Assembly (NCBI GenBank): GCA_040401595.1
Contig: JBBAOE010000003.1
Span: 139,459 to 203,458 of the forward strand
Reading direction: 5' to 3'
Origin: Burkholderiaceae bacterium
GTDB lineage: Bacteria; Pseudomonadota; Gammaproteobacteria; Burkholderiales; Burkholderiaceae_E
DNA: 64,000 nt
Made by a program: the position numbers and the translations under genes
Shown here: in pieces, positions 1-18,791 of the stretch
Layout: each line of letters opens with the position of its first letter
Numbering within the stretch: the stretch's first letter is position 1
Notes under the pieces: model-generated
Seen by the model: only the letters and a program-made list of their open reading frames with translations
What the model was told of the DNA's origin: nothing
Databases searched by the model: none

Positions 1-1544
1 ACGGAAGATCCGGCGAACTCCACCCCCACCTTTTCGCCGGCCGCGTTGGTCAGCGTAGTGAACCAGCCATTGTGTGAGTCACCGGAGAGTGTCACCAGAC
101 GCTTGCCCTGCGATTTGGCAGCCGTATAGATCGCTTCGCGGTTGGTGGTGTAGCCATCCCAGGCGTCGAGGTTATACGGGATCCGCGGATTCGTTTTGGG
201 ATCCAGCAGGGCGGTCTGGGCCGGGGACAATGCGCCGGCGCCAGCAGCGGCGGCTGCAGCGGGTGTGGCGCCCGCGGCCAAGGCGGCTGCGGTCACACCA
301 AAACGGGTGGCTTTGGCCGTCAGGAAGTCCGAGATCGCCTTGCCGACCGCCGCCTGATTGGCAGGGGTTGGGCTCGCAAACGCCGCATTTTGTGCCGTGC
401 CCACGTTTGCCGGGAGCGCCATGCGGGCCATGATCACCTGGTTACCCAGGATTTGCCAGGTGGCCGTGGAGGCCTTCATGCCGTCGGTGAGCCACGTCTG
501 CTGTTCCGTGCTGATGATGCGTTGGTTCGCATCGGTTCCGGTTCCCAGGGCGGTCAGGTAACGCGTCACCCCGCCGTCTGCGTCGCCGTAGTTATCGTAC
601 TGGCGCGTTCGACCTTCGATTCGGGTATCGAGCATATGCAAGGTCATCAGGCTGCCGAAGTCAAAGCGGCGATAAATCTTGAGCAGGTTGCCGCTGGCAT
701 CCGTGCGGATCGGCATCCACTCGTGGTACGCGCGGGAGGCATTGGCCTTGCGCACAGCCCAGTCCCCTTGGGTCGCCGGGTTATGGTTTTCGGCGCCAGT
801 GACGTAGGCGTTATTGGCGAACTCGTGATCATCCCAGATGGCGATGAGCGGCATTTTGGCGTGCAAGGCCTGCAGGCTGGCGTCGCTACGATAGGTCGCG
901 TAGCGCGTCCGGTAGTCCTCGAGCGAGACGATTTCACTGGCCGGGGCCGTGACTCGGCCAAGCGTCACCGCATCGGCATTGCCATAGCCCGCTGGGTTCG
1001 AGCTGTATTCGTAGATGTAGTCGCCCAGATGGATGGCGTACTGCGCATCGGATTTGGCGGCGGCGTCATAAGCGTTGAAATATCCCTGGGAATACAGCGA
1101 GCAGGAGAACACCGCGAGTTTCACCGAAGCGACGTCGCTCTTGGGCAGTGTTCGGGTGATACCGACGGGCGAGAAGGCTCGGGTGGCGTCCAGGAATCGG
1201 TAGTAGTAGGTGGTGCCCGCGCTCAACCCGGTGACATCCACTTTGGTGGTGAAGCCTGTCTCCGGACTCGACAGGCAAGACCCCGATTTGACGATCGTCG
1301 AAAACGCGCTGTCGGTGGCCACTTCATAGGTGAGTGGGACGCTGAGGTTCGAATCGATCGACTTGGCGTGGGTCCAGAGGATGACCCGGTCGGTCAGGGG
1401 GTCGCCGCTCGCGACGCCGTAGCGATATTCCGCCGGCGTCAGGGGGGACTCGCCGCAGGCGCTCAGCGCAGCACTGGAGGCGACGACGGCTGCTGCCGAT
1501 GCGGATTTGAGGAGGAACTCGCGGCGATCGTTGGTCTTGGTCAT
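1..1544 (-). CDS. phoD: Alkaline phosphatase D family protein (PhoD), N-terminal ~514 codons; C-terminus lies beyond the left edge
   Basis: Absent from the ORF track because it has no in-window stop. The minus-strand ATG at 1544 has GGAG 7 nt upstream. It reads MTKTNDRREFLLKSASAAAVVASSAALSACGESPLTPAEYRYGVASGDP and stays open to position 1. Motifs seen: IAIWDDHEFANN and LSGDSHNGW. Twin-arginine RREFL is followed by an LSAC lipobox. Confidence 0.85.
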   Translation of the reverse strand, partial: MTKTNDRREFLLKSASAAAVVASSAALSACGESPLTPAEYRYGVASGDPLTDRVILWTHAKSIDSNLSVPLTYEVATDSAFSTIVKSGSCLSSPETGFTTKVDVTGLSAGTTYYYRFLDATRAFSPVGITRTLPKSDVASVKLAVFSCSLYSQGYFNAYDAAAKSDAQYAIHLGDYIYEYSSNPAGYGNADAVTLGRVTAPASEIVSLEDYRTRYATYRSDASLQALHAKMPLIAIWDDHEFANNAYVTGAENHNPATQGDWAVRKANASRAYHEWMPIRTDASGNLLKIYRRFDFGSLMTLHMLDTRIEGRTRQYDNYGDADGGVTRYLTALGTGTDANQRIISTEQQTWLTDGMKASTATWQILGNQVIMARMALPANVGTAQNAAFASPTPANQAAVGKAISDFLTAKATRFGVTAAALAAGATPAAAAAAGAGALSPAQTALLDPKTNPRIPYNLDAWDGYTTNREAIYTAAKSQGKRLVTLSGDSHNGWFTTLTNAAGEKVGVEFAGSS

Positions 1545-1586
1545 GTCTGGACTCCGGATAAGAGCCCGGATTAACGCAAGGCTTCA

Positions 1587-1604
1587 GTGACACCATCGTG
1601 AAAA
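1587..1604 (-). promoter_or_regulatory. Pho-box-like direct repeat upstream of phoD
   Basis: Read on the minus strand it is TTTTCAC-gatg-GTGTCAC. These are two 7-mers at 11-bp phasing, resembling the PhoB box CTGTCAT-N4-CTGTCAT. The box ends 43 bp upstream of the phoD ATG, where a -35 element would sit. Confidence 0.5.
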
Positions 1605-1729
1605 TCAAAGCCCGGGGTGCAACGCCATCGCGTTCGGTTGTTCGTCCTGACAGTACGCTCAGTCGTTATTTTTTATGAAACGGTCCTGTGCAGCAGAACA
1701 GCGGGTCTCGAGCCATGGGATCTCATGCC

Positions 1730-5230: not shown

Positions 5231-5272
5231 GCCGGTTCCAGTTTGCCTGTGCCGGTATTAAACGGAACGCCT

Positions 5273-5290
5273 TTGACGGGATCATGACAA
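5273..5290 (-). promoter_or_regulatory. Pho-box-like direct repeat upstream of the PlcP-like gene
   Basis: The minus strand reads TTGTCAT-gatc-CCGTCAA. It ends 43 bp upstream of ATG 5230, the same spacing as at phoD. Confidence 0.5.
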
Positions 5291-5299
5291 CTGATGGTT

Positions 5300-6193
5300 T
5301 TAGGTTGGTTGTTGGTTTTTTGCGTTGTCCGGCAGAACCATCAGTGCCTGCCCCATCTGGATTCGCTGCCCTGACTGAATACCGTGCGCTAGGCGAAAGC
5401 CTTTGGGCGCAAACACGATGATGGTGGAGCCATGTTCGAACCAGCCCAGTTCTTCGCCCTTGCCAAATGCGTGAGCGCATGGAATTTCGTTGGGGCCTTT
5501 CCAACGCAGGTGCATCAGGATATTGATTGCATGAAGGCGGATGCTCGCAACCAGAACGGCGGCTACCGGGACGATTGCCAGCGGATGATTGGCTGCGCCG
5601 ATTCGGGTTCTGAGAACAGCTCGTTCGTTTTTGCAGAACAGACGCTCGACCCGCTTGAGAGCGATCGGGTTGACATTCCAGACGTCACCGCTGAGATAAG
5701 TAACGTGATCCAGTTGTCCATCGTAGGGGGCATGGAAGCGGTGATACATCGAGGAAGTCAATCTCAGGGTGACATAGGTCCCGTCGACAAACGGGCTAAT
5801 GTCCTGGGAAGGTCCGAATAATTCTCGAATTGAGTATGGATAGCCCTTGGCCTGAAAGACCTCTATCCCCCGTACATCTCCACAGGCGCCCACGATTGCA
5901 TCGCATGGACTGCTGAGCGTATCGGGATCATGATCGACGCGCCGGGCCCCGGGCTTTAGTTCCCGGATGAAGCACTCGCGCAAACTGTTGAACCGTTGCT
6001 GACGGGCTTCCGAGAGATCGAGATCTGTGAAGACTCGCCAGACGGCAATGGAAAATCGCGTCAGTAGAGGGCTTCGGATCGCGCTGTATCGACCCATCCA
6101 CTGCGTTAGCAAGATCCGCGGGATTCGGTTGGTCAGCAGAAAATTCAGGTCTTCCTGAAGAAAAAGACGATCACGCAATCTGGAGAGCTTCAT
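5300..6193 (-). CDS. Phosphatidylserine decarboxylase family protein (pyruvoyl-dependent)
   Basis: Motifs: MYHRFHAPYDG, SGDVWNVNP and C-terminal GWFEHGSTIIVF, which carries the G-S-T self-processing site typical of Psd proenzymes. Confidence 0.8.
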   Translation of the reverse strand: MKLSRLRDRLFLQEDLNFLLTNRIPRILLTQWMGRYSAIRSPLLTRFSIAVWRVFTDLDLSEARQQRFNSLRECFIRELKPGARRVDHDPDTLSSPCDAIVGACGDVRGIEVFQAKGYPYSIRELFGPSQDISPFVDGTYVTLRLTSSMYHRFHAPYDGQLDHVTYLSGDVWNVNPIALKRVERLFCKNERAVLRTRIGAANHPLAIVPVAAVLVASIRLHAINILMHLRWKGPNEIPCAHAFGKGEELGWFEHGSTIIVFAPKGFRLAHGIQSGQRIQMGQALMVLPDNAKNQQPT

Positions 6194-8105: not shown

Positions 8106-8828
8106 TCAGGCGTGCCGATTGGACGGGTCGGTCACGTGGTCCATCGGGTCAATGCGCTGCCCCCGCAACAGAAAGAGCGGGGCCGTGTGGTACATCTTGA
8201 TGTCATGAAACGGGTCGGTGATGATCTTGAATGCCCAAGCGATCGCTGTTTTGGCGTCTCGGATCACGACCAGTTGTGCAACCCGGAACAGCAGGCCGCC
8301 AACCCCGATCGCGAACCAGACAAGACCGACCGAATGCCAGAACTCTGACATGGTGGTCCAGGCTGGGAGTGCACCAAACAGGTCCGGCACGAACCAGACG
8401 ACCAGGGGGCTCGCCGCCCACAATCCCATCAATACCACCTTGCGCATCAGGTTGTAGCCCACCTTGATTTCTTCCTTGTGCTCGTGGGTCGCTTGATTCA
8501 CCTCGTCGTAGCCTTTGGGCTCGAAGAAGAAATGTCCAGCCTGCCGACTCGTCATCGACACGCCCCATGCCAACAAGGCGGCATAGGCCGGGTCCACGAA
8601 CAAGAGCGCGTACGCCGTGACAAAGCACAGCGCGCTCAGGAGATGGAGGCTCTGGTTGATTCGGCAATGATGGTAGTAGCGATGATCGTCCCAGCGCAGG
8701 ACCGCGAGCGATTCAAAAAACTCTTTCACGTGGTTACCATCAAAAAGAATGACCTCAGGGTCTTCGGTCACAGTTGACAAAATCCAGCCGCTTGCCGCGA
8801 GCGCACTGCTTAGGGTGTGCCGCCTCAA
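8106..8828 (-). CDS. Polytopic membrane protein of unknown function (His-rich motif)
   Basis: It has several hydrophobic helices and a YYHHCRINQSLHLLSALCF motif, followed by AGHFFFEP. I could not place it in a family with confidence. The start (TTG 8828) is uncertain. Confidence 0.55.
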   Translation of the reverse strand: MRRHTLSSALAASGWILSTVTEDPEVILFDGNHVKEFFESLAVLRWDDHRYYHHCRINQSLHLLSALCFVTAYALLFVDPAYAALLAWGVSMTSRQAGHFFFEPKGYDEVNQATHEHKEEIKVGYNLMRKVVLMGLWAASPLVVWFVPDLFGALPAWTTMSEFWHSVGLVWFAIGVGGLLFRVAQLVVIRDAKTAIAWAFKIITDPFHDIKMYHTAPLFLLRGQRIDPMDHVTDPSNRHA

Positions 8829-8861
8829 ACGCTGCCATAAGGCTCATCTTGTCTAGGATTT

Positions 8862-8890
8862 GTGACATCTTGCTGACAGAAAAATGACGA
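8862..8890 (-). promoter_or_regulatory. Triple phased Pho-box-like array upstream of the membrane-protein gene
   Basis: The minus strand reads TCGTCAT-tttt-CTGTCAG-caag-ATGTCAC, three 7-mers at exact 11-bp phasing. Confidence 0.55.
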
Positions 8891-8917
8891 ATTGATGTCA
8901 TTTCTCGGTAGCATCGA

Positions 8918-8935
8918 CTGTCATCACATTGTCTC
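8918..8935 (+). promoter_or_regulatory. Pho-box-like direct repeat upstream of the glycosyltransferase gene
   Basis: The plus strand reads CTGTCAT-caca-TTGTCTC, with an additional ATGTCAT half-site at 8895-8901. It overlaps the TTG 8929 given in the ORF track, which argues for ATG 8959 as the true start. Confidence 0.4.
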
Positions 8936-8958: not shown

Positions 8959-10239
8959 ATGCCCGATGAAATCGCAGCTCTGTCCGTGGAATCCGATGGT
9001 GCGTCTGCGCGGCCCTTGCGGATCGCCTTCGTGACCGAGACCTACCCGCCCGAAGTCAATGGCGTGGCGATGACGCTGGCAGAACTCGTTCGACGCTTGC
9101 ACGCGCGACATCACCAGATTGAATTGATCCGGCCACGTCAGGGACATGAGGTTGCCGCACCGAAGTCCCCCGATTCCGATGGGGCGATCCTGGGTCATGG
9201 CCGGGCGCCCATTCGAGAAGTCCTGGTGCGTGGCATCCGGATTCCCCGCTACAGTCAGTTGAGGATGGGGCTACCCGCCAAAGGGGCATTGCTCCGGACA
9301 TGGACGACCCAACGTCCAGATGTCGTGCATATCGCGACCGAGGGGCCCTTGGGATGGTCAGCCCTGCAGGCTGCTCGAACCTTAAAGGTGCCGGTGAGCA
9401 CCGATTTCAGAACGAATTTTCATGCCTACAGTCGCCACTATGGGATGCGCTGGTTGCATAAGCCCATCATGGGGTACCTGCGCCAATTTCATAATCTCGC
9501 TCACAGGACTACGGTTCCGACCAAGACCTTGATGGGGGAGTTGTCGGCGTGCGGGTTCGAACGTCTGGTCGTGGTTGCCCGTGGGATTGATGCAGAGCGT
9601 TTTGATCCCCGACATCGCTGTATGGCACTGCGCCAGCGTTGGGGTCTGAGCCCGGATGATTTCGCAGTTCTGTATGTGGGTCGGCTGGCAGCTGAAAAAA
9701 ATCTCGAACTCCTCGCCCATGCCTTTGAAGCCATTGCAGTGGTGAACCCGCGGGCCCGCTTGATTCTGGTGGGCGACGGCCCGATGCGCTCGGCACTGCA
9801 GGCGCGTTTGCCGAACGCACTGTTCTGCGGGCAGCAGATGGGTCACGATCTTGCCCGCTGTTACGCCAGTGCCGACTTGTTTCTGTTCCCGAGTAAGACG
9901 GAAACGTTTGGGAATGTGACGGTCGAAGCGATGGCGAGCGGTTTGCCGGTGGTTGCTTTTGCAGACGGGGCTGCGCTCGAGTTGATCCGGCCCGGTCAGA
10001 ATGGCGCAAGCGTTGCGCTTGACGACGATGCGGGCTATGTCAGTGCGGCGACTCAACTTGCAGTGGACTCTGACGCCTGTCGGGCCCTGGGAGCAGTTGC
10101 ACGCGAGACAGCGTTACAACTTGATTGGGAGACGATCGTCGATCGTTTCGAAGTGGTGATTCGTTCTGCCGCTCACAGCGGGTTCGGGTCCGTTCCGACG
10201 GGAACGCTCAGTGCGCCCCGACCGATACCATCACGTTGA
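8959..10239 (+). CDS. GT4-family glycosyltransferase (Agt/SqdX-like glycolipid synthase candidate)
   Basis: The N-terminus reads RIAFVTETYPPEVNGVAMTL. The retaining GT-B motif is FPSKTETFGNVTVEAMASGLPVV (E-x7-E). Confidence 0.85.
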   Translation: MPDEIAALSVESDGASARPLRIAFVTETYPPEVNGVAMTLAELVRRLHARHHQIELIRPRQGHEVAAPKSPDSDGAILGHGRAPIREVLVRGIRIPRYSQLRMGLPAKGALLRTWTTQRPDVVHIATEGPLGWSALQAARTLKVPVSTDFRTNFHAYSRHYGMRWLHKPIMGYLRQFHNLAHRTTVPTKTLMGELSACGFERLVVVARGIDAERFDPRHRCMALRQRWGLSPDDFAVLYVGRLAAEKNLELLAHAFEAIAVVNPRARLILVGDGPMRSALQARLPNALFCGQQMGHDLARCYASADLFLFPSKTETFGNVTVEAMASGLPVVAFADGAALELIRPGQNGASVALDDDAGYVSAATQLAVDSDACRALGAVARETALQLDWETIVDRFEVVIRSAAHSGFGSVPTGTLSAPRPIPSR

Positions 10240-10678
10240 TGACGCCTGCGCGTTCGAATCTCAGACCCATCGAGTAGTTGCGGCCCCACTCCAATGGGGC
10301 TTTTAGACCCTTGAGTAGCAGATGGTATTCGCCGGCCTTGAACGCCATGTCGGCGCCTGCAAGCACCTGAATTGAAGATAGGGCTGGTGCACTGGCGTCC
10401 GGCCCACCGCGCAGTTCGACGCGGTCGGCCAGGGTGGTGTAGGCAGATAACAGACGATCATTTTTCGTGATGGATTCGAGAATCAGATAGATCGGTGCGT
10501 CGCGGGCTTGCGGCTCCGAGGCCTCGCCCCAGGGGTGCACGATGGTAAAACCGTCGGCGTAGTACTCGTGCGACTCGGCCGAGACTGCGGCCAGCGAGGC
10601 CAGAATCAACAATGCCAGTCGGGCACCGAGCCTAATCATGGGGTTCATCAAGGTCTTGGTAGCCATCGGAGAAGTCAT
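10208..10678 (-). CDS. Periplasmic PCu(A)C-like (DUF461-like) protein
   Basis: It has a Sec signal peptide (LASLAAVSA) and a small beta-rich mature part. YHLLLKGLKAPL is reminiscent of the PCuAC core, but the Met ligands are absent. ATG 10678 overlaps the upstream stop (ATGA). Confidence 0.45.
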   Translation of the reverse strand: MTSPMATKTLMNPMIRLGARLALLILASLAAVSAESHEYYADGFTIVHPWGEASEPQARDAPIYLILESITKNDRLLSAYTTLADRVELRGGPDASAPALSSIQVLAGADMAFKAGEYHLLLKGLKAPLEWGRNYSMGLRFERAGVINVMVSVGAH

Positions 10679-11298
10679 CCCGAAAATTGAATTGAATAGC
10701 CCCAGGAGTCCAGGCGCTGGGGGATCGCGTTAAACGCGAGCGTGACCCGCGTTGTGCCCTGGTTCACTGGTACTTCGTGCAGGAGAGAACTCGGGAACAG
10801 CACCAGATCGCCAGCGGCAGGCAAGGGACCCGCCCATTTCTCGGCGTTGAATGGACCTAGTTGGGTCTTGTCATGCATGTTGCTGAACACAAAATCGCGC
10901 CCGCCGAGACTGCGAATGAAGAGCGTATTCGCTGAGGCGTGGCATTCGCTCAGGTAGAGCACCCCAGAGATAAAGCAGTTCGCATGGTTGTGAACCGATT
11001 GCCGACCCCCGTGGCGCAGAACGTTGACCCACAATTCCTTGATGTGCCAGGTCAGAGGCTCACCGAACAGATGAATGCCAAACTCCACCAGTCTTGGCTG
11101 TAGGGTGACTGCAAGCTCTTCAAGGAGCTGGTCTCCACCCGGGTTCAGGATCGTGGTGTGGGTCAGTTCAGCCGATCGTGGATTTGCCTGAGCAGCCTCG
11201 GGTGCGAACCGCTCGCGCAGCGCAGTGACCCGCTCGGGCGCGACGGCCTTCTCCACACGCATGAATGGGGTCGGAAACAGCGGAATGATGTCGGGCAC
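10675..11298 (-). CDS. Putative 2OG-Fe(II) oxygenase-like protein (TIGR02466-type)
   Basis: Motifs: FPTPFM at the N-terminus, SVHNHANCFISGVLYL and LVLFPSSLLHEV. GTG start at 11298. Confidence 0.6.
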   Translation of the reverse strand: MPDIIPLFPTPFMRVEKAVAPERVTALRERFAPEAAQANPRSAELTHTTILNPGGDQLLEELAVTLQPRLVEFGIHLFGEPLTWHIKELWVNVLRHGGRQSVHNHANCFISGVLYLSECHASANTLFIRSLGGRDFVFSNMHDKTQLGPFNAEKWAGPLPAAGDLVLFPSSLLHEVPVNQGTTRVTLAFNAIPQRLDSWGYSIQFSG

Positions 11299-11361: not shown

Positions 11362-12363
11362 TCAGGCCGGCCAGCCAACGATCACGGCGATTCGCGCCAA
11401 TGACCAGTAGGCGGCAATCGCCCCGATCCCGTAGAGCGCGGGCACTTTGAGTTGCGCCGCGAGTTTGGTGCGAACCAGCAGCAGGGTCAAACCCCAGGCC
11501 AGGGCCACCACCAGCAACTGGCCAGCCTCAACGCCCAGATTGAAGGTCAGTAGTGCCATCGAGACATGTTGTTCAGGCAGGCCAATTTCCTTCAAAGCGC
11601 CTGCGAACCCGAGACCATGAACAAGTCCAAATACAAAGGCAACCAGCGCCGGCCAGCGCCGGGTCCAGGTCTCGCGTTGGTAGAGCGCTTCGGCGCTGAC
11701 CAGGACGATCGACAGGGCAATCGAAGCCTCGACGGGCGGGGATCGCAGCACCAGGAGTCCGAGCGCACTGGCTGCAAGGGTCACGCTGTGTGCGAGCGTA
11801 AACGCCGTGATCGTCGCAATCAGGCGTTTACGAAATCCAACCAGAAACAAGAGGCTGATGACAAAGAGCAGATGATCGAAGCCGGTCAGGATATGTTCGA
11901 TCCCGAGTGAAAAATAGGCGGTAGCCACTTCGCTGCCGGCTCTCTCGTCCTTGGCGCTGCCAAAGAGCTGGACTTTGGGCTGTGCGCTCGTCAGAGTTAC
12001 CACTTGACGATCACCGCTTCGCCAATAGATCCGAACGATCGCGGCGGAATACGCTTTACCGACGCCCTGGATCGATAACATTCCGGCGAGCCCCTTGGGC
12101 CCACACTGGATCAGTTGTTGATCACCCGCGCACCCTTCGGGCCAGCTCGGGCTCAGATCCTCCCCGATCGGGCGGCCCCCCTTGCCGGCGGCGCCCCAGG
12201 ACCAGATGAACTGACCCGGTGCGACTTCGCGCATCGTCATTTCGGCCATGGTCAGCTCATGGGCGTGGGCCACTGAAACACCGAACCCTACCAGGGCGAC
12301 GAGGAGCATCAGGCGTTTCAGAAGCCATTGCGCCAGGGCGCTGAGCCCAGAGTTTGGCGCCAT
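11362..12363 (-). CDS. HupE/UreJ-like metal-transport membrane protein with an N-terminal periplasmic domain
   Basis: The signal peptide ends AHA|HE. The C-terminal half carries GFDHLLFVISLL, AFTLAHSVTLA and GLVHGLGFAG. ATG 12363 overlaps the upstream TGA by 1 nt. Confidence 0.7.
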   Translation of the reverse strand: MAPNSGLSALAQWLLKRLMLLVALVGFGVSVAHAHELTMAEMTMREVAPGQFIWSWGAAGKGGRPIGEDLSPSWPEGCAGDQQLIQCGPKGLAGMLSIQGVGKAYSAAIVRIYWRSGDRQVVTLTSAQPKVQLFGSAKDERAGSEVATAYFSLGIEHILTGFDHLLFVISLLFLVGFRKRLIATITAFTLAHSVTLAASALGLLVLRSPPVEASIALSIVLVSAEALYQRETWTRRWPALVAFVFGLVHGLGFAGALKEIGLPEQHVSMALLTFNLGVEAGQLLVVALAWGLTLLLVRTKLAAQLKVPALYGIGAIAAYWSLARIAVIVGWPA

Positions 12364-13241
12364 CAAGGCTTCACCTCTTCTTCGCGAATCTTGTACTTCT
12401 TACCCATTTCGCGAACCGCATTCGTACTGAGTTGGGCCATGGTGTCGTCGCGCCAATCCTGATAGATCGCGTCTTTGTTCTTGTCGAACTCGGCAGGCAC
12501 ACCAGGCTTGATTTCCTCTAGCTGTATCACCCGCAGCCCATCGGTACTTCCGATCAACTGCCAGACGCCAGGGGTCGACTTTTCAATGGCTTCGGTAAAC
12601 TCTGCCCCGTAGCTTTGCACCAGATTTTGCCGGGGGCGGTCCTTGAAGACCCGCAAGCTGCTTTCGGCGTCGATTTTCCCCTTGCCATTGAGCGCGGCAA
12701 CGAACTTCGTCAGGGCCTCAGGCGATCGATCACTGGTGACTACTGCTTCGAGAAAATTAAATCGTATTGGCGTGTCGTAGCGATCACGTTTGGATTCAAA
12801 CCATTTGCGAACGCCGGCTTCATCAATCTTGGGAAGGGTGAGTCCAGATTGGGTCACGCTCAGGGACTTGAAAATGATCCGGTCGCGGATTGCCGAATCG
12901 CCCCGGTCCAGACCCAGCGCCAGGCCTTCGCGATAGAGCACTTCGTTATCGACCCATCGATCCAGGAGTGTTTTCAGTTCGGCCTCGCTTGGCTCGCGCT
13001 TCAAGCCGCCGGTGAAAATGTCGTGGGCTTCTCTCTTGACCGATTTCGAGATCGTGATCGTTTGGGGGTCGTCCTTGTCAAGACTCAAGGTGTGGTCAAC
13101 GCCAAACACCAAAGCACCCAGCACCATAAAATGCAGCAAGGGTTCACGCAACATGCGGGACAGGGGGCCGTCTGTGCGGTTCGTCGAGGAGGCCGAAGCA
13201 GCACCTGGGACTGGGGCGTTTTGAGGATCCATGGAATTCAA
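12363..13241 (-). CDS. Membrane-anchored PpiC/SurA-like peptidyl-prolyl isomerase family protein
   Basis: EPLLHFMVLGALVFG forms an N-terminal anchor, and the rest resembles rotamase-type proteins that I recall as frequent neighbours of HupE-like genes (from memory). Alternative start is ATG 13232. Confidence 0.5.
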   Translation of the reverse strand: MNSMDPQNAPVPGAASASSTNRTDGPLSRMLREPLLHFMVLGALVFGVDHTLSLDKDDPQTITISKSVKREAHDIFTGGLKREPSEAELKTLLDRWVDNEVLYREGLALGLDRGDSAIRDRIIFKSLSVTQSGLTLPKIDEAGVRKWFESKRDRYDTPIRFNFLEAVVTSDRSPEALTKFVAALNGKGKIDAESSLRVFKDRPRQNLVQSYGAEFTEAIEKSTPGVWQLIGSTDGLRVIQLEEIKPGVPAEFDKNKDAIYQDWRDDTMAQLSTNAVREMGKKYKIREEEVKP

Positions 13242-13248
13242 CGAGGGT

Positions 13249-15915
13249 TCAGCGGGAGTTGGGGGATGGAGTCGGCCGGATCGCCGCCAGCGCGTTCAGG
13301 ACCTCACTGGCGACACCGGGTTCGTTACCCAGCAGGGACCGTGCAAGCGTGAACAGGGGATCGTACGCGGGCAGAAAATCGGGGCTTTGCTGGAGAATGT
13401 CCAATAAAGGCTCGCGTAATCGCAGGAGCATGTTTAGCGGGTCGGGATCGGGCCGCACTGTCAATCCCAATTCAATGTAGCGCGCCCGCGCCGACCCGTA
13501 GGCTTGCAGGCGTTGAAGCGTCTCCTCTGAGGCGTCACGCAAGACGCTATCGGGCTTCAGCTGCAGTTGATGGACGAGGGTCATCAGGCGGGTTCGTGGC
13601 GTTTCCGTAGGCGCATAGGTTTCCCACGGCGCATCATGAATCACGGCAGGCCGATCATCGGTGTTTGGCATGACCTGACCGGCGAACGCCCGCAGCTCCT
13701 CGGGTCCTGCAAGGATGCTGCCGAGAATGGCGTATTCGTCAACCACGCGCGCCTGTATCAGCGGCCGATGCAGCGCGGGGGCCGCTTTGAGCAGACTCGC
13801 CCGAACCCAGTCGGGATTCCAGCGCGGCTGATCCGGTCGCGAGAGCAAACCCAGCACGGGGGTGTCCAGACTGTTGCTCGCCAACACGGCGACCGCATCC
13901 GGATACACCTTCAAGAAGGCGGCAGTGATGCTGCGCACCGTCTGCAGGTTCATCTGATGGACCGCGAGCCACTGGCAAAATAATCCGCCGGGCGCTAGCT
14001 GTCGGCGAGCAGCTGCAAAATGCTCGACGGTATAGAGCGAGCCCGCGCCGCTGCGCGCCGGATGAAAGAGATCGGCAACGATGACGTCGTACTGTACCGG
14101 CGACGCCTGCACGTACCGTCGGGCATCGGCCGCGAGAATCTTCAGGGGCATGTCATCCCGCGCGGCGCTGGGTTTCGGCGCAAAGAACGCTGCAGCCTCA
14201 ATCACTTCGGGCAGCAACTCCACCGCAGTGACTTGCAAATCCGCGTTCAATGCGGCGGTCTGCGCCGTATGCCCTGTGCCAAGCCCTAGAAAGAGTGCGC
14301 TGCGTGGCGCCGGATGCAGCAGGATGGGTAGTTCAGCGAGCCGCACTTCCACCGGACTACGGGCACTGCTGCCTTCCTGAGTACGATTGTTGATCCGCAA
14401 GCGGGCGATGCCGCTTGGATCTTCAACGATGCTCACCGCTGCCATCGTGCCATCGCGATAACTCTGGAGCGTCGACCCCTCTGGCATGTCGACGAATCGC
14501 AGGGGCGACGCCCAGAGGCCAACTGCTATCGCTGCCAGTGCAGACAACGCGACGCGAGGCTGGAACCAATTGATTCTCGAATGTAGCGCGAGATAAGCGC
14601 CGATGATGATGCTCAAGATCCATTTCGGCCCAACCAGGGGGATCAGGCCGACGCCAAACAGGAGCGGTGCGCAGGCAGCCCCGGTGGTGTTGACAGCGAG
14701 CGCTCGCCCGAGCGGCCAGGACTGCGCTTGAGCGCGCTGGCACAGATGGGTGAAGAGCGCGCCCATGATCAGGGTCGGGGCCAACATCGCGGCGACCGCC
14801 GTCAAGGCCTCACCGGTCAGTGCAGTGAGCGCGCTCGCGCCAAAGGTACGTGCCGGCCATGCGCAGATGACATCCGCCCACCACAGCGTTGCGCCGCCCA
14901 ACAAAATCGCGGCGGCGAGGCCTTGAATCAGCGTGCTCTCGGTGGCGTCGTTTGCTGGTGGTTTGCGCGCTTGCAGGAGGGCAGCGCCCAGTGCAGTCCC
15001 CAGCAAATAAACCGCCAGCAAGAGTGCGTAGCTGTAGACCGTATTTTCGGTGACCTGGCTCAGAACGCGCACCGCGAGCACTTCGTAACCGATGCCGAGT
15101 AGCCCGGTGAAGAACAGGACTCGGCCAATGACCGGATGCTGGGTGTCTGCGCCCGGCGTCATCGCATTGCGTGCTGTGGTTTGATCCTTTGCAGGGGTGG
15201 CCATAGCCTCCAGTGGCGTTCGCCAGAGCGACAAGGCCAGTACAGCGCAAGCTGCATTGATCGCGCTGCACACCCAAGCGGTTTGTTGCAGTCCGAGCGT
15301 CGGCATAGCCACAAACACGACCGCCAAGACACCCAGTACCGCACCGAGGGTGTTCGCGGCATACAGCCCGCCGAGTCGACTCGCGGCGCCCGATAGTTGA
15401 CGCTCAATCGCGGGTAGCGTTGCACCCATCGCAGCGGTTGCCGGCAGCAGCAGCAGCATGGGAAAGCCAAACGCGAGGCACCAGTGCCAGAGGCTCGAAG
15501 GCTGCGCGCCGATCATTGCGTGGGTGGTGTGATTGAACCAGGGCAATAGGGCTGTCAGGACCAGCCCCCACAGCGCGATGAGTGTCTCAAGGGCGGCGTA
15601 CCAACGGCCCGGGACCCGACTGGCGGCAATCGATCGCCCCAACACAAAGGCGCCGATTGCCAGTCCGCCGAAGAACGCAGCAAGAACGGCGAGCACGGCA
15701 ATGATCTCGTGCCCCAGTGCTGTCGCCAGTTGCGCGCTCCAGAGCATTTGCCAGGCAAGCGACACGGCGCCCGAGAGCGCCATCAATAGGTAAGGCAACA
15801 GAGGACCTTTCAGCGCAGTGAGTCGACGCGTTGAGTAAGCGATCGACGAAAACGAAAAACCGGCCGCAGGGCCGGTGGTCAGGCCATGGTCACGAGCCCG
15901 AAGGCCCGTAACCAT
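13249..15915 (-). CDS. Fused polytopic membrane domain / spermidine-synthase-like aminopropyltransferase fold protein
   Basis: The 888-aa protein has an N-terminal half of about 450 aa that is highly hydrophobic. The C-terminal half carries LFLGLGTGHT, YDVIVADLFHP and GGLFCQW (SpeE-like SAM fold), followed by a helical repeat-like tail. Confidence 0.75.
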   Translation of the reverse strand: MVTGLRARDHGLTTGPAAGFSFSSIAYSTRRLTALKGPLLPYLLMALSGAVSLAWQMLWSAQLATALGHEIIAVLAVLAAFFGGLAIGAFVLGRSIAASRVPGRWYAALETLIALWGLVLTALLPWFNHTTHAMIGAQPSSLWHWCLAFGFPMLLLLPATAAMGATLPAIERQLSGAASRLGGLYAANTLGAVLGVLAVVFVAMPTLGLQQTAWVCSAINAACAVLALSLWRTPLEAMATPAKDQTTARNAMTPGADTQHPVIGRVLFFTGLLGIGYEVLAVRVLSQVTENTVYSYALLLAVYLLGTALGAALLQARKPPANDATESTLIQGLAAAILLGGATLWWADVICAWPARTFGASALTALTGEALTAVAAMLAPTLIMGALFTHLCQRAQAQSWPLGRALAVNTTGAACAPLLFGVGLIPLVGPKWILSIIIGAYLALHSRINWFQPRVALSALAAIAVGLWASPLRFVDMPEGSTLQSYRDGTMAAVSIVEDPSGIARLRINNRTQEGSSARSPVEVRLAELPILLHPAPRSALFLGLGTGHTAQTAALNADLQVTAVELLPEVIEAAAFFAPKPSAARDDMPLKILAADARRYVQASPVQYDVIVADLFHPARSGAGSLYTVEHFAAARRQLAPGGLFCQWLAVHQMNLQTVRSITAAFLKVYPDAVAVLASNSLDTPVLGLLSRPDQPRWNPDWVRASLLKAAPALHRPLIQARVVDEYAILGSILAGPEELRAFAGQVMPNTDDRPAVIHDAPWETYAPTETPRTRLMTLVHQLQLKPDSVLRDASEETLQRLQAYGSARARYIELGLTVRPDPDPLNMLLRLREPLLDILQQSPDFLPAYDPLFTLARSLLGNEPGVASEVLNALAAIRPTPSPNSR

Positions 15916-15929
15916 GTTCGCGGGTCAGA

Positions 15930-18065
15930 TTACTTGACGCCGGCAACCTTGCTCGAACCCAAAACTTCGACGTAGACCGGGTTGCTGTAGAACCAGAGGT
16001 CAGACCAGGCAACGACGTCAGAACTCGAGTACTTGACGCCAGCGACCGTACGCATGTGGGCTGGGCATGCTGCGTCGCCACAAGGGATTGCCCCCGGGAG
16101 GGTCTGGTCGTTCGGAGCCACTAGGAAGTCATTCAGTGGATTGCCCTCAGCATCGGTCTCGAACGGCACCGATGCTGGGATGTTGGTTCCGCGCAGACGG
16201 AAGTACTGCGATGCTTTCACAGCCGGAACCCGATAGGTCATCGTGCGGACACCATCCGCTGAAGCCGTCCAATTCGTTGAATTGAAGGTTTTCTGGATCT
16301 TCGCCGAGGCATTGAAGATCTTTGCGGGGAATTCGGCTGCTGTCACCGCAGGCGCATAGGCGCCCTGATCAGCAGGATCAATGTAGCCCGTGACATTGCC
16401 ACCGATCAGATCAACGTGATCGAGCACCGGCGCATTCAGAGGCTGGATGATGTTGACCTGCTTGAGGGACGGATTCGGGAAGCTGTAAGGTGATGCGTTC
16501 GTGCCCTGCGGATCGCGCAGAGAGACGGTGACGAACAGGTCGGTACCCGGGCGAACGACGAGCTTTTCGCCCATGGTGGCGCAACCGTCGATCCGCACCT
16601 CACCATTACCGGCAACCGCATTGGCAGACGCTTTCTCGATCAGTGCCTTGTTGGCATTGCGCGGCAGGCCTGGGTTCGACGCGCAGACCACGAACGACAG
16701 GCGATCGATCAGTTGCCCATTGGCAACGTAGCTGTTGCCACTGCGCAGACCGTCGATGATGCCTTCGGCGGTCAGGTTGCCTGTGCCCTTGCGAACCATG
16801 ACATAGTCATTGGTGTATTCGCCGGGGTAGAAATCGTTGTCGGTTTCGCGCTGGTCGGGACCGAAGGTGCCACGGCTGTGGTAGTCCGAGCTTGCAAAGA
16901 ACCACCAGTTACGGCCTTCGCCCAGCAGACCGTCCCATAATCCACCGATCTTGGCCGCGTAAACGCCCGTGCCGCCAAAGGTGCCGCCGCCTACAGCGTT
17001 CGACGAATAGCTGCCGCGCGGGGATTCCGCACCGTGGCCAGGCATTGACTCGAAACCAAACGCAATCTTTGGGGCTACGTTGTTGAAATTACGCAGGTGC
17101 TCGATGTTGAAGCCGTTGTTGCCGGTCGGGTTATAGATGCCGGCACGCTCGAGGTGGGCTGGAACGAAGTAGGACGTCGTTGGCGCCTTCTCGTTCAACC
17201 ACTTGAGGCCTTCCAAGGTCTTGATATGCCCCATGTTGGGGTACTTGGCGGTGTTGGTTCCGCTCAAGTTGTCAGTCGGCGCGATTTTGGCGGACAGGGG
17301 ATTGATCAGCGTGTTGTTCGAGCTGCCGGTGACCGAGCAATCCCAGAGGTTCTCAGCGCCGCGGCTGGTGTCGGTATCACTGCGATCAAAGCAATATTCG
17401 TATTGCGCCTGAAGGTTGGCGTTACCGGTTGTTGCGGTCGACGGCCAGGGTGCCTGACCTTTAAGCACGGCCATCGAGGTGTGCTCATGGCCGGGGTTGT
17501 TTTGCTCGAGTCCGATCCAGACTGGCTTCTTCGCATCACGGCCAAGGGTTTCAAGGGCTTTGTATTGATATTCCTTGATCTCCTGCCAGCGCCACATCTG
17601 CTTCGGTGTAGCGGTTCCGTCGCCCTTGATGGCGGCGAGGCCAATCGTGGATTCCCAGGTCTGGTTCGGTCCTTTGAGAGCCGAGGCGGGCTGGCCAGCC
17701 CCCGGGTAGGTCACTGGTGGCGAAGCCTGCCAGGGGCCGGTGGCGCTGGTGGTCAGTCCCAGACCGGGCGCGACCGGCTCAAACGGGTCTTCGGCCAGCG
17801 TACAGTTTCGAGCGCTGCGGCCACCGTGGTCGGCCTGGACGAACCAGTCGAGCTTCCAGGTGTTGACCGATTTGTCGACCAGCTTCTTGAGCGAAAGCGA
17901 GCCATCCGAGCAAGTCGAGTGGTTGTGGAAGTCACCGGTGACATAGGTGCCAGCGGCCTTGGTGGCGGCCTTTGGGGCAGCCGAGGCTTGCGGGGCAAGG
18001 GTCACGACGGTCGTGATGGCGGCGATCGCAACAGCGACTTCGCGCATTTTAAACTGGGGCTTCAT
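15930..18065 (-). CDS. Secreted PHP-domain (polymerase/histidinol-phosphatase fold) metal-dependent phosphoesterase-like protein
   Basis: The signal peptide ends QASA|AP. Ordered PHP-like motifs are GDFHNHSTCSDGS, FVQADHGG, GLEQNNPGHEH, VPAHLER and ASSDYHS. A long beta-rich C-terminal region follows. Confidence 0.6.
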   Translation of the reverse strand: MKPQFKMREVAVAIAAITTVVTLAPQASAAPKAATKAAGTYVTGDFHNHSTCSDGSLSLKKLVDKSVNTWKLDWFVQADHGGRSARNCTLAEDPFEPVAPGLGLTTSATGPWQASPPVTYPGAGQPASALKGPNQTWESTIGLAAIKGDGTATPKQMWRWQEIKEYQYKALETLGRDAKKPVWIGLEQNNPGHEHTSMAVLKGQAPWPSTATTGNANLQAQYEYCFDRSDTDTSRGAENLWDCSVTGSSNNTLINPLSAKIAPTDNLSGTNTAKYPNMGHIKTLEGLKWLNEKAPTTSYFVPAHLERAGIYNPTGNNGFNIEHLRNFNNVAPKIAFGFESMPGHGAESPRGSYSSNAVGGGTFGGTGVYAAKIGGLWDGLLGEGRNWWFFASSDYHSRGTFGPDQRETDNDFYPGEYTNDYVMVRKGTGNLTAEGIIDGLRSGNSYVANGQLIDRLSFVVCASNPGLPRNANKALIEKASANAVAGNGEVRIDGCATMGEKLVVRPGTDLFVTVSLRDPQGTNASPYSFPNPSLKQVNIIQPLNAPVLDHVDLIGGNVTGYIDPADQGAYAPAVTAAEFPAKIFNASAKIQKTFNSTNWTASADGVRTMTYRVPAVKASQYFRLRGTNIPASVPFETDAEGNPLNDFLVAPNDQTLPGAIPCGDAACPAHMRTVAGVKYSSSDVVAWSDLWFYSNPVYVEVLGSSKVAGVK

Positions 18066-18127: not shown

Positions 18128-18616
18128 TTAAACGTTCTTCTGGTCGCCGAACAGGCGTACCTTGCCGCTGCTGAACTTCACCGGGATGGTGTAGGTCGTG
18201 GTCGTCGTGTCAACGTCGGTGTTCGTGACCGTCGCGGTCAGCGTGCAGACGCCGTTGGCATCACATCCAGATACCGTTACGCCCGATAAGTCGGCGATTG
18301 GGAAGGCCGACAAATCGGCCGCAACCGCAACCGCGAAGGATTCCTGAGTCAGGTTGTCTTTCAACGCCTGTTTGGTGTAACCAGCGTCCAGAAACGCGTC
18401 ATCGAAGAGGTCGACGAATCCACTGCTGGTCAGGCCGCTGAAGGACTTGAGCCCTGCGATCCCGGCGTTATAGCTGGCGGTGAACGCTGCTACCTGATCG
18501 GTCGTTGGGGCAGTGCTGGTGGAACCTGAGCTTGTTGACGAGTCACCACCGCAAGCGGTTAGCAGGCTCAGCAGGCCAGCGGCGAGCGACAGCTGGGCGG
18601 TCTTGCAAATTGTCAT
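18128..18616 (-). CDS. Lipoprotein of unknown function
   Basis: This is ORF 18128..18691 trimmed to ATG 18616. It reads MTICKTAQLSLAAGLLSLLTACGG (lipobox LTAC), followed by a Ser/Thr-rich linker. Confidence 0.65.
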   Translation of the reverse strand: MTICKTAQLSLAAGLLSLLTACGGDSSTSSGSTSTAPTTDQVAAFTASYNAGIAGLKSFSGLTSSGFVDLFDDAFLDAGYTKQALKDNLTQESFAVAVAADLSAFPIADLSGVTVSGCDANGVCTLTATVTNTDVDTTTTTYTIPVKFSSGKVRLFGDQKNV

Positions 18617-18762
18617 GAGATCGCAACCTTCAAAAAATCTTGGGGGGGTCCGGTGGGAACCGGTTTTGTTTTGCATTCGGCCAGTCCGCAAGGTAGGTGC
18701 GCCGATGGCACTACCCCACTCAAACTGAGGAGGGATTGTCCGGTCGGGCCCATGACGCTCGT

Positions 18763-18791
18763 GTGACGTTCAAATAAACGTTTTATGACGG
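18763..18791 (-). promoter_or_regulatory. Triple phased Pho-box-like array upstream of the lipoprotein-PHP operon
   Basis: The minus strand reads CCGTCAT-aaaa-CGTTTAT-ttga-ACGTCAC, three 7-mers at 11-bp phasing. The first 11 nt match the enterobacterial CTGTCATAAAA apart from one base. Confidence 0.55.

Follow-up and report, generated by a model that had tools for sequence, protein, structure and literature searches.

A candidate exported, PhoB-linked phosphoesterase family of the PHP superfamily, represented by P0001 of a Burkholderiaceae bacterium

Phosphoesterases of PHP, the superfamily named after polymerase and histidinol phosphatase, share an ordered motif set (HxH, D, H, E, H, H, DxH) at the strand ends of a barrel. 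They are mostly cytoplasmic proteins of 250–350 amino acids (aa), found by the Pfam model PF02811; the superfamily includes YcdX, L-histidinol phosphate phosphatase, TrpH/RNase AM (7ug9), PolX (3au2), TM0559 (2anu), 9etk, 3e0f and 3e38. Exported PHP-type hydrolases have also been described. One is Sb-PDE, a zinc phosphodiesterase that Sphingobium sp. TCM1 secretes through Sec (PMC5460133); others are the carbamate hydrolases CehA and McbA, which have essential histidine residues in a PHP-like domain (PMC8292978). Here we analyse P0001, the product of a gene in a 64,000-nucleotide stretch of a Burkholderiaceae bacterium genome (contig JBBAOE010000003.1, positions 139,459 to 203,458; hereafter the window). 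P0001 has the PHP motif order, but it is exported, 711 aa long and invisible to Pfam. Our preferred reading, which we consider probable though some way from secure, is that it is an exported metal-dependent phosphoesterase from a large uncharacterised family of the PHP superfamily, expressed within the PhoB regulon. The gene and the parts of its product are as follows.

15930..18065, minus strand: P0001, a 711-aa exported PHP-like metallohydrolase (open reading frame, motifs and conservation).
17979..18065, minus strand: Sec signal peptide, residues 1–29, with predicted cleavage ASA↓AP (read from sequence).
16716..17954, minus strand: PHP-like β/α barrel, residues ~38–450 (conservation, order of secondary structure in the AlphaFold model, profile matches and hhalign).
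Within the barrel: candidate metal ligands H47, H49, D54, H80, E187, H193/H195, H304, E339/H344, D394 and H396 (conservation).
15933..16715, minus strand: C-terminal β-sandwich domain, residues ~451–711 (DSSP assignment on the AlphaFold model).

P0001 is encoded by a real, selected and conserved gene, which runs on the minus strand from 18065 to 15930. The first-pass annotation of the window had given the same coordinates, together with a cleavable Sec signal and an ordered motif series, and both features are borne out. The motifs GDFHNHSTCSDGS, FVQADHGG, GLEQNNPGHEH, VPAHLER and ASSDYHS are all present in the 711-aa product, in that order. The N-terminal signal sequence (MKPQFKMREVAVAIAAITTVVTLAPQASA, then AP) has n-, h- and c-regions, with a hydrophobic segment at residues 10–29 and the end QASA↓AP; no twin-arginine motif is present in this signal peptide. 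Eight cysteines (C52, C88, C225, C243, C461, C495, C662 and C667) are invariant in a 40-sequence alignment of Burkholderiales-type orthologues and, with the signal peptide, fit an oxidising compartment. The C-terminal domain ends in a family-wide motif, DLWFYSNP, and is retained even in short family forms of 407–479 aa.

Compared with the known PHP phosphoesterases, the P0001 barrel carries ~150–200 residues of insertions, has a β-sandwich fused to it and holds additional invariant residues (H193/E194/H195, D227, R307, R325, R350, D378 and R385). The best functional precedent is Sb-PDE, which we take as a functional analogue only. Like P0001 it is Sec-exported and belongs to the PHP superfamily; it is metal-dependent (mainly zinc, some cobalt), probably disulfide-dependent, and hydrolyses phosphodiesters outside the cytoplasm. 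Unlike P0001, it is 441 aa long and matches PF02811, and neither Pho-box control nor an accessory module is reported for it. Its motifs (GDLH.., FTEHD, WNHP and TTDAHG) also depart from those of the P0001 family (LDW..DHGG, PGHEH, WDALLGEGR and DLWFYSNP). On the published alignment Sb-PDE belongs to a different PHP subfamily, and we rejected it as a member of this one; conversely, a Novosphingobium ‘phosphoesterase’ beside an IS6 element, considered as a possible Sb-PDE, is a short member of the P0001 family.

The first-pass annotation knew of no PHP-fold exoenzyme in phosphate scavenging. This is too strong as to export, because Sb-PDE (PMC5460133) and CehA/McbA (PMC8292978) are exported PHP-type hydrolases. 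As to the role it holds: our literature searches, which covered Pho-regulated or secreted PHP enzymes and Variovorax phosphate-starvation omics, found no PHP-type enzyme described as a Pho-regulon phosphatase and no account of the P0001 family. PhoA, PhoD, PhoX, PafA and the purple acid phosphatases resemble P0001 in its predicted role (exported, metal-dependent, PhoB-controlled phosphate release), but have an unrelated fold and metal site.

Membership of the PHP superfamily emerges from comparisons at family level. P0001 alone retrieves nothing in a sequence search of the PDB, and in NCBIfam the PHP-domain model NF005928 aligns to residues 21–83 below threshold (E 0.0037). Pfam PHP does match a relative, P0127 (E 2.2e-5). 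A profile built from 35 diverse members matches only PHP-superfamily proteins in the PDB, the best being 9etk, ‘metal-dependent phosphoesterase (PHP family)’ (E 1.5e-5). TM0559 (2anu) is matched at E 1.6e-4, with the AHPDR and SDFH motifs also aligned at sub-threshold level; further matches are the PolX PHP domain (3au2), 3e0f, 3e38 and RNase AM (7ug9). Alignment by hhalign of the family with TrpH-type PHP proteins of related genomes (82% probability, E 1.1e-5, 183 columns) pairs HxH, D, DH and AHPxR. No curated model cut-off for PHP membership is passed, and it is the family profile and hhalign that support P0001 as a divergent member of the superfamily.

DUF3604 (PF12228) was considered as an identity for the family. 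Its proteins are likewise long (~600–700 aa) and signal-peptide-bearing, with an analogous motif order, and UniRef labels the Variovorax terrae orthologue of P0001 as DUF3604. We rejected it: PF12228 (cut-off 20.4 bits) is matched neither by P0001 (E≤10) nor anywhere in its genome. An hhalign comparison with a true DUF3604 protein found no relationship, though this and the same comparison with one true CehA/McbA-family protein used single sequences and were uninformative. DUF3604 is itself uncharacterised (bioRxiv 10.64898/2026.10.18.759936).

The family is large. More than 2,800 homologues of P0001 were found, all unnamed or ‘hypothetical’ save for the one UniRef label. Relatives in genomes of GTDB species number 188 (47–96% identity), mostly from Burkholderiales (Comamonadaceae, Oxalobacteraceae and the Rubrivivax/Roseateles group), with others in Competibacteraceae, Methyloversatilis and one metagenome-assembled genome of Polyangiales. 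The gene is sporadic, with a match in 13 of 301 sampled Burkholderiales genomes. Its N-terminal ~445 residues form a widespread module: an exhaustive profile search returned 1,113 clusters at 50% identity with E≤1e-3 and 349 with E≤1e-30, in host proteins of ~500 to 2,279 aa. Members occur in Pseudomonadota, Bacteroidota, Ignavibacteria, Deinococcota and Actinomycetota, and include an SLH-anchored form.

Conservation across this diversity centres on the barrel. In 114 sequences reaching down to 36% identity, D45, H47, H49, D54, H80, E187, H193, E194 and H195 are invariant, as are D227, H304, R307, R325, H344, R350, D378, R385 and D394; H396 and E339 are conserved at 90% or more. All positions of the canonical PHP ligands are covered by this set, which also holds further acidic, histidine and arginine residues. 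That all canonical ligands are invariant or at least 90% conserved, multidomain fusions included, is typical of a maintained active site.

An AlphaFold model of P0001 made with the 114-sequence alignment is confident (pLDDT 90.9, pTM 0.90); an earlier run with 18 close homologues had been unusable (pLDDT 45). Strands and helices alternate in the order b40–44, a59–69, b75–77, an insertion, a159–178, b182–188, b298–303, a321–330, b335–341, a368–382, b388–391, b418–424 and a433–442. The insertion includes a low-confidence segment, residues 99–124. Judged from this order of secondary structure, each motif lies at a strand end. The ~250 β-rich C-terminal residues of the first-pass annotation form a β-sandwich (residues 455–701). 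Foldseek, run against the PDB and BFVD, gave no match at E≤1e-3; the listed matches were weak, Ig/FN3-like and to the C-terminal domain, and a PHP barrel was not among them. Structure prediction and fold search, both proposed at first pass, gave a confident model with strand–helix alternation and no recognised PHP barrel. Given the lack of a significant structural neighbour, it is sequence profiles and the topology of the motifs that carry the PHP assignment, and not a comparison of folds.

The same Foldseek result, which offers no close enzyme structure, would suit a protein that has kept a PHP-like fold and lost catalysis, such as a phosphate- or metal-binding periplasmic scaffold. The large C-terminal β-sandwich and a lipoprotein partner could be read in the same way. 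Conservation of the canonical metal ligands down to 36% identity, in multidomain fusions too, argues against an inactive binding or structural protein, and we consider one highly improbable.

The second line of evidence for an exported phosphoesterase is regulatory. The elements concerned are listed here.

About 18791..18751, minus strand: putative PhoB binding array of four phased 7-4-7 direct repeats with an 11-bp period, in −35 position (sequence).
18735..18740, minus strand: putative −10 hexamer GACAAT, 10 nt past the last repeat (sequence).
3..1544, minus strand: phoD (PF09423, E 1.9e-91), with a PhoB-type repeat upstream.

A Pho-box-like array and a nearby phoD had both been noted at first pass, and both are there: the array at about 18790 to 18751 on the minus strand, and phoD, by its PF09423 match, at window 3–1544 on the same strand. 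The array reads CGTCATA aaac GTTTATT tgaa CGTCACA cgag CGTCATG and stands ~135 nt upstream of the start codon of the lipoprotein gene that heads the operon. Its proximal dimer, CGTCACACGAGCGTCATG, nearly matches the dimer CGTCACGCGAGCGTCATA of the phoB promoter in the same genome, where CGTCACG-cgag-CGTCATA is followed, 7 nt after the box, by GATAAT, a hexamer comparable to the putative GACAAT here. Exact CGTCAY-N5-CGTCAY sites number seven in the 3.74-Mb genome, and two of these lie in the promoters of the PHP operon and of phoB.

The array is conserved beyond this genome. At the equivalent location, Variovorax terrae and Xylophilus rhododendri both show arrays of phased CGTCAT/CGTCAC/CGTAAT repeats. 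Across 82 orthologous loci, the density of exact GTCAY-N6-GTCAY dimers (coding strand) is 0.48 per kb within 1 kb upstream of the PHP gene, compared with 0.0096 per kb elsewhere, an enrichment of ~50-fold. Dimer positions are stereotyped: −60 to −125, directly before the PHP gene, in Rubrivivax/Roseateles-type loci, and about −610 to −700, before the lipoprotein gene, in Comamonadaceae-type loci. The PHP operon promoter shows the 7-4-7 repeats, 11-bp phase and −35 position by which Pho-regulon membership is judged, and the PHP gene very probably belongs to the Pho regulon as read from these sites.

The gene also shares its island with phoD, PlcP-like and BtaA-like genes that bear similar 7-4-7 repeats. 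PhoB-type repeats were seen at window 1545–1640, 1690–1790, 5231–5310 and 8829–8935, preceding phoD, the BtaA-like gene, the PlcP-like gene and a divergent pair (the gene at 8106–8828 and a GT4 gene); examples are TGTCATG-atcc-CGTCAAA and the four-repeat array TGACATC/CGTCATT/TGTCAGC/TGTCACA. As a separate observation, the pstS promoter region (C1:174140-174380) has only a weak Pho-box-like sequence, TTTCATC-gtcc-TGACACA, with a tRNA-gene-like sequence immediately upstream.

A third line comes from the company that the PHP-like domain keeps elsewhere. Many Bacteroidota proteins of ~1,350 aa combine it with Pur_ac_phosph_N and Metallophos domains (purple acid phosphatase) and a type IX secretion system (T9SS) tail; other fusions are to phytase-like, ‘choice-of-anchor I’, cohesin and SLH modules. 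One stand-alone homologue is encoded directly upstream of SusC/SusD and a PhoA with a GDPD_2 domain, an arrangement that mirrors the phosphate-utilisation system PUSII of Flavobacterium johnsoniae (PMC8115612). Another adjoins ppk, PhoB-like response regulators, PhoH and PAP2, and one fusion protein lies among genes for TonB-dependent receptors and Metallophos proteins. Conserved putative PhoB sites and fusions to known phosphatases together suggest an unrecognised phosphate-scavenging enzyme, and a role of this kind is, on such comparative evidence, probable for P0001. This link to phosphate, made up of the promoter sites, the fusions and the gene neighbours, is the strongest of our results.

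Individual architectures illustrate the range of fusions. P0306 joins the PHP-like domain to a purple acid phosphatase and a T9SS tail; P0172 adds a phytase-like domain (PF13449) to the same set. P0169 has cohesin, choice-of-anchor I and a T9SS tail, and P0145 has Metallophos, Big_2 and SLH.

A different chemistry has to be weighed here, in which P0001 would work in the periplasm on esters or amides that lack phosphate, hydrolysing a natural ester much as CehA/McbA hydrolyse carbamates, and the Pho-box-like repeats would be coincidental or serve another OmpR-family regulator. NF038032 (CehA/McbA family metallohydrolase, a family of exported enzymes with a PHP-like domain) is the sole named model with consistent matches in the family, where E values run from 3.8e-9 to 4e-20; in P0001 residues 376–461 align to model positions 159–226 (E 3.8e-9, 36.4 bits). 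CehA/McbA rely on essential histidines in the PHP-like domain, and in strain CDS-1 a TonB-dependent receptor lies upstream of cehA (PMC8292978). The curated cut-off of NF038032 is 80 bits, however, against 36.4 bits for P0001 and 51–72.5 bits for relatives (the highest score among the short forms), and the match covers motif V and the C-terminal β domain, leaving the N-terminal half of the model unmatched. Carbamate hydrolysis, moreover, is mostly viewed as a xenobiotic adaptation of recent origin (PMC8292978). The repeats come close to those of the phoB promoter and are kept, in set positions, from genus to genus. With phosphatases as fusion partners as well, we judge a non-phosphate substrate improbable.

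The PHP gene is the second in a tightly packed seven-gene operon on the minus strand, whose other members are these.

18128..18616, minus strand: first in the operon, a lipoprotein of 162 aa whose lipobox is LLTAC↓G (translation).
13249..15915, minus strand: 888-aa polytopic membrane protein fused to a spermidine-synthase-like (SpeE-like) domain (PF01564, E 3.6e-11; NF037959).
12363..13241, minus strand: membrane-anchored parvulin-type peptidyl-prolyl isomerase (PPIase; Rotamase_2, PF13145).
11362..12366, minus strand: HupE_UreJ_2 membrane protein that also carries an N-terminal domain of ~150 aa, a putative metal supplier (PF13795, E 1.4e-45).
10675..11298, minus strand: cytoplasmic 2OG-Fe(II) oxygenase (PF13759; TIGR02466 match just under cut-off).
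10208..10666, minus strand: periplasmic PCuAC-like protein of 152 aa (PF04314, E 9.4e-14; signal peptide).

In Burkholderiales the PHP gene is accompanied by five or six of these partners, the lipoprotein often but not always among them. Of the 82 loci, most of those with enough sequence have it together with the membrane/SpeE-like, PPIase, HupE_UreJ_2 and oxygenase genes, despite rearranged order and orientation, and about half also have a PCuAC-like match; the listing of open reading frames in high-GC relatives was too noisy to define additional genes. Linkage of HupE_UreJ_2 to the PHP gene is seen in almost every locus of sufficient length, and the pair recurs on plasmid pDEIPR03 of Deinococcus proteolyticus. 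The PPIase gene directly follows the PHP gene in the ~50%-identity group, and in Sphaerotilaceae-type loci the PCuAC-like gene is immediately upstream of it. The lipoprotein, for which Pfam gives no match, keeps its place upstream of the PHP gene in the closer relatives alone, those of the Comamonadaceae/Oxalobacteraceae group. The 888-aa protein has ~12 hydrophobic segments. The N-terminal LLHFMVLGALVFGV of the PPIase reads as a membrane anchor, though below the hydropathy threshold used, and the oxygenase, which co-occurs with the module, has no signal peptide. We infer that the HupE, PCuAC-like and PPIase genes are a cofactor-delivery and folding set for the exported enzyme.

Two further observations concern these partners. 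On pDEIPR03 (L127:4869-7342) a 407-aa short member annotated ‘phosphoesterase’ is immediately followed by a HupE_UreJ_2 protein that also has an extra N-terminal domain, the pairing of the window repeated in a distant phylum. Directly downstream of a distant PHP-like gene, stretches at L099:9805-10195 and L100:7343-7480 resemble parts of the 888-aa protein, namely its N-terminal residues 44–90 and C-terminal tail 803–884 only; its two ends may constitute a partner element of their own for the enzyme.

A TonB-dependent receptor belongs to the wider neighbourhood. In 20 related loci its orthologue lies within 9 kb of the module; in the source genome it is ~17 kb away, just before the window and beside phoD. 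There a NikR-family regulator (RHH_1 and NikR_C) and then the receptor occupy L125:6552-9645 (C3:136051-139144), just upstream of window base 1, and a palindrome, GTAAGA-N15-TCTTAC, separates the two genes. A run of N at L125:7460-7480 interrupts the 5′ end of the receptor gene. The NikR-like protein ends in a histidine-rich tail and, judged against E. coli NikR, seems to have other residues (TMQMQLDHEHRLE) in place of the high-affinity nickel ligands. The nikR gene adjoins the receptor gene in loci L009, L010 and L124.

Related palindromes were seen elsewhere before a divergent receptor gene: GTAGGA-N15-TCATAC at L001:9215-9250 and GTAGGA-N15-TCCTAC at L002:9225-9260, both resembling NikR operators. 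In each case the palindrome and the PHP operon's Pho-box array lie in a single intergenic region, an arrangement suggestive of dual control of this region by phosphate and metal.

Several points weigh against P0001 as an exported Pho-regulon phosphoesterase. A Pfam search gave no match even at E≤10, with the PHP and DUF3604 models silent, and the Foldseek search returned no PHP barrel. Characterised members of the one named family that matches, CehA/McbA, hydrolyse carbamate esters and not phosphoesters. Literature searches found no enzymatic, localisation or expression results for any family member. Members in Novosphingobium and Pseudoalteromonas lie in FecR or ECF-sigma clusters that include TonB-dependent receptor genes and are not recognisable phosphate loci. 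Finally, the HupE_UreJ_2, PCuAC-like and PHP-like genes are co-inherited, and the receptor linkage (20 loci), the NikR-family neighbour and the palindromes could all point towards metals.

These last points, with the recurrence of the PHP-like/HupE_UreJ_2 pair in Deinococcus and the FecR/ECF-sigma/receptor contexts, make the case for the main rival reading, a periplasmic hydrolase or metal-handling component of a transition-metal (Ni/Co-type) acquisition pathway. A NikR-controlled receptor would import a metal chelate, to be released or processed by the PHP-like enzyme; the ion would then be shuttled by the PCuAC-like protein and brought over the inner membrane by HupE_UreJ_2. Synthesis and export of the chelator might fall to the SpeE-like membrane protein and the 2OG oxygenase, and PhoB control would serve the metal demand of phosphatases in phosphate starvation. 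Such a pathway leaves unexplained the fusions to purple acid phosphatase and phytase-like domains, and the PhoA/PusCD, ppk and phoH neighbours in phyla without HupE present. In Sphaerotilaceae-type loci the Pho boxes stand directly before the PHP gene itself, and the NikR-like protein seemingly has no canonical nickel ligands, by the same comparison with E. coli NikR. Genes for metal handling are no less to be expected around an enzyme that simply has to be given its cofactor. We regard a primary role in metal acquisition as rather unlikely.

The short members in Novosphingobium and Pseudoalteromonas (~470–480 aa) are encoded directly after TonB-dependent receptors (L123:369-4789, L129:2641-11287 and L122:158-4978). 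The receptor in L123 has a FecR gene before it; in L129 the enzyme gene is followed by genes for an ECF sigma factor and FecR. Judged by gene neighbourhood, these forms seem to answer to trans-envelope signalling and not to PhoB.

Returning to an exported PhoB-controlled phosphoesterase, the data are compatible with the following scheme. In phosphate starvation, phosphorylated PhoB would bind the four 11-bp-phased repeats that replace a −35 element and drive the seven-gene transcript. The preprotein would be exported by Sec, cleaved after ASA and stabilised by up to four disulfides. Its elaborated β/α barrel would take a PHP-type, probably trinuclear, metal centre, for which the conserved residues are candidate ligands. 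The HupE_UreJ_2 permease, the PCuAC-like protein and the membrane-anchored PPIase would most plausibly supply metal to the enzyme and fold it. Acting in the periplasm or on the cell surface, it would then hydrolyse an organophosphate and so release phosphate for Pst uptake; the substrate, perhaps a monoester, a diester, phytate, polyphosphate or nucleic acid, might be imported by the linked TonB-dependent receptor.

Of the two locations, the periplasm is the more likely site of action, as opposed to release from the cell. Among distant family members, T9SS sorting domains, a PEP-CTERM motif and SLH repeats are found, and none of these anchors is present in P0001. It has a Sec signal only, its operon partners are periplasmic or inner-membrane proteins, and a TonB-dependent receptor is linked to it. 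The first-pass annotation had called the enzyme extracellular: export is predicted by the Sec signal, and release is the less likely part in view of the partners and the receptor link. Its central proposal, a PHP-type, Pho-linked enzyme of phosphate scavenging, is upheld in silico by profiles, signal peptide, Pho boxes, and fusions and neighbours; it needs amendment as to precedent and location, and the conserved accessory module extends it.

Organic-phosphorus mineralisation in soils and waters is currently credited to a few phosphatase families, and newly recognised ones, PafA most recently, have changed gene-based estimates of phosphorus cycling. The P0001 family is large, invisible to Pfam and nearly always annotated ‘hypothetical’. 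Tentatively, and with more doubt than we attach to P0001 itself, it may be an unrecognised major class of exported Pho-controlled phosphoesterases, like PhoA, PhoD, PhoX and PafA, with a dedicated extracytoplasmic metal-insertion pathway in Proteobacteria and Deinococcus, formed by HupE_UreJ_2 with or without the PCuAC-like protein and the PPIase. If so, HupE_UreJ_2 would gain a role as cofactor supplier for an exported enzyme, possibly of nickel or cobalt rather than zinc, iron or calcium. Its conserved association with HupE_UreJ_2, PCuAC-like and PPIase genes would also make the family a convenient model for how exported metalloenzymes come by their metals. If the family is an active phosphoesterase, it would provide a new marker gene for phosphorus stress and new enzyme chemistry in extracellular phosphorus scavenging.

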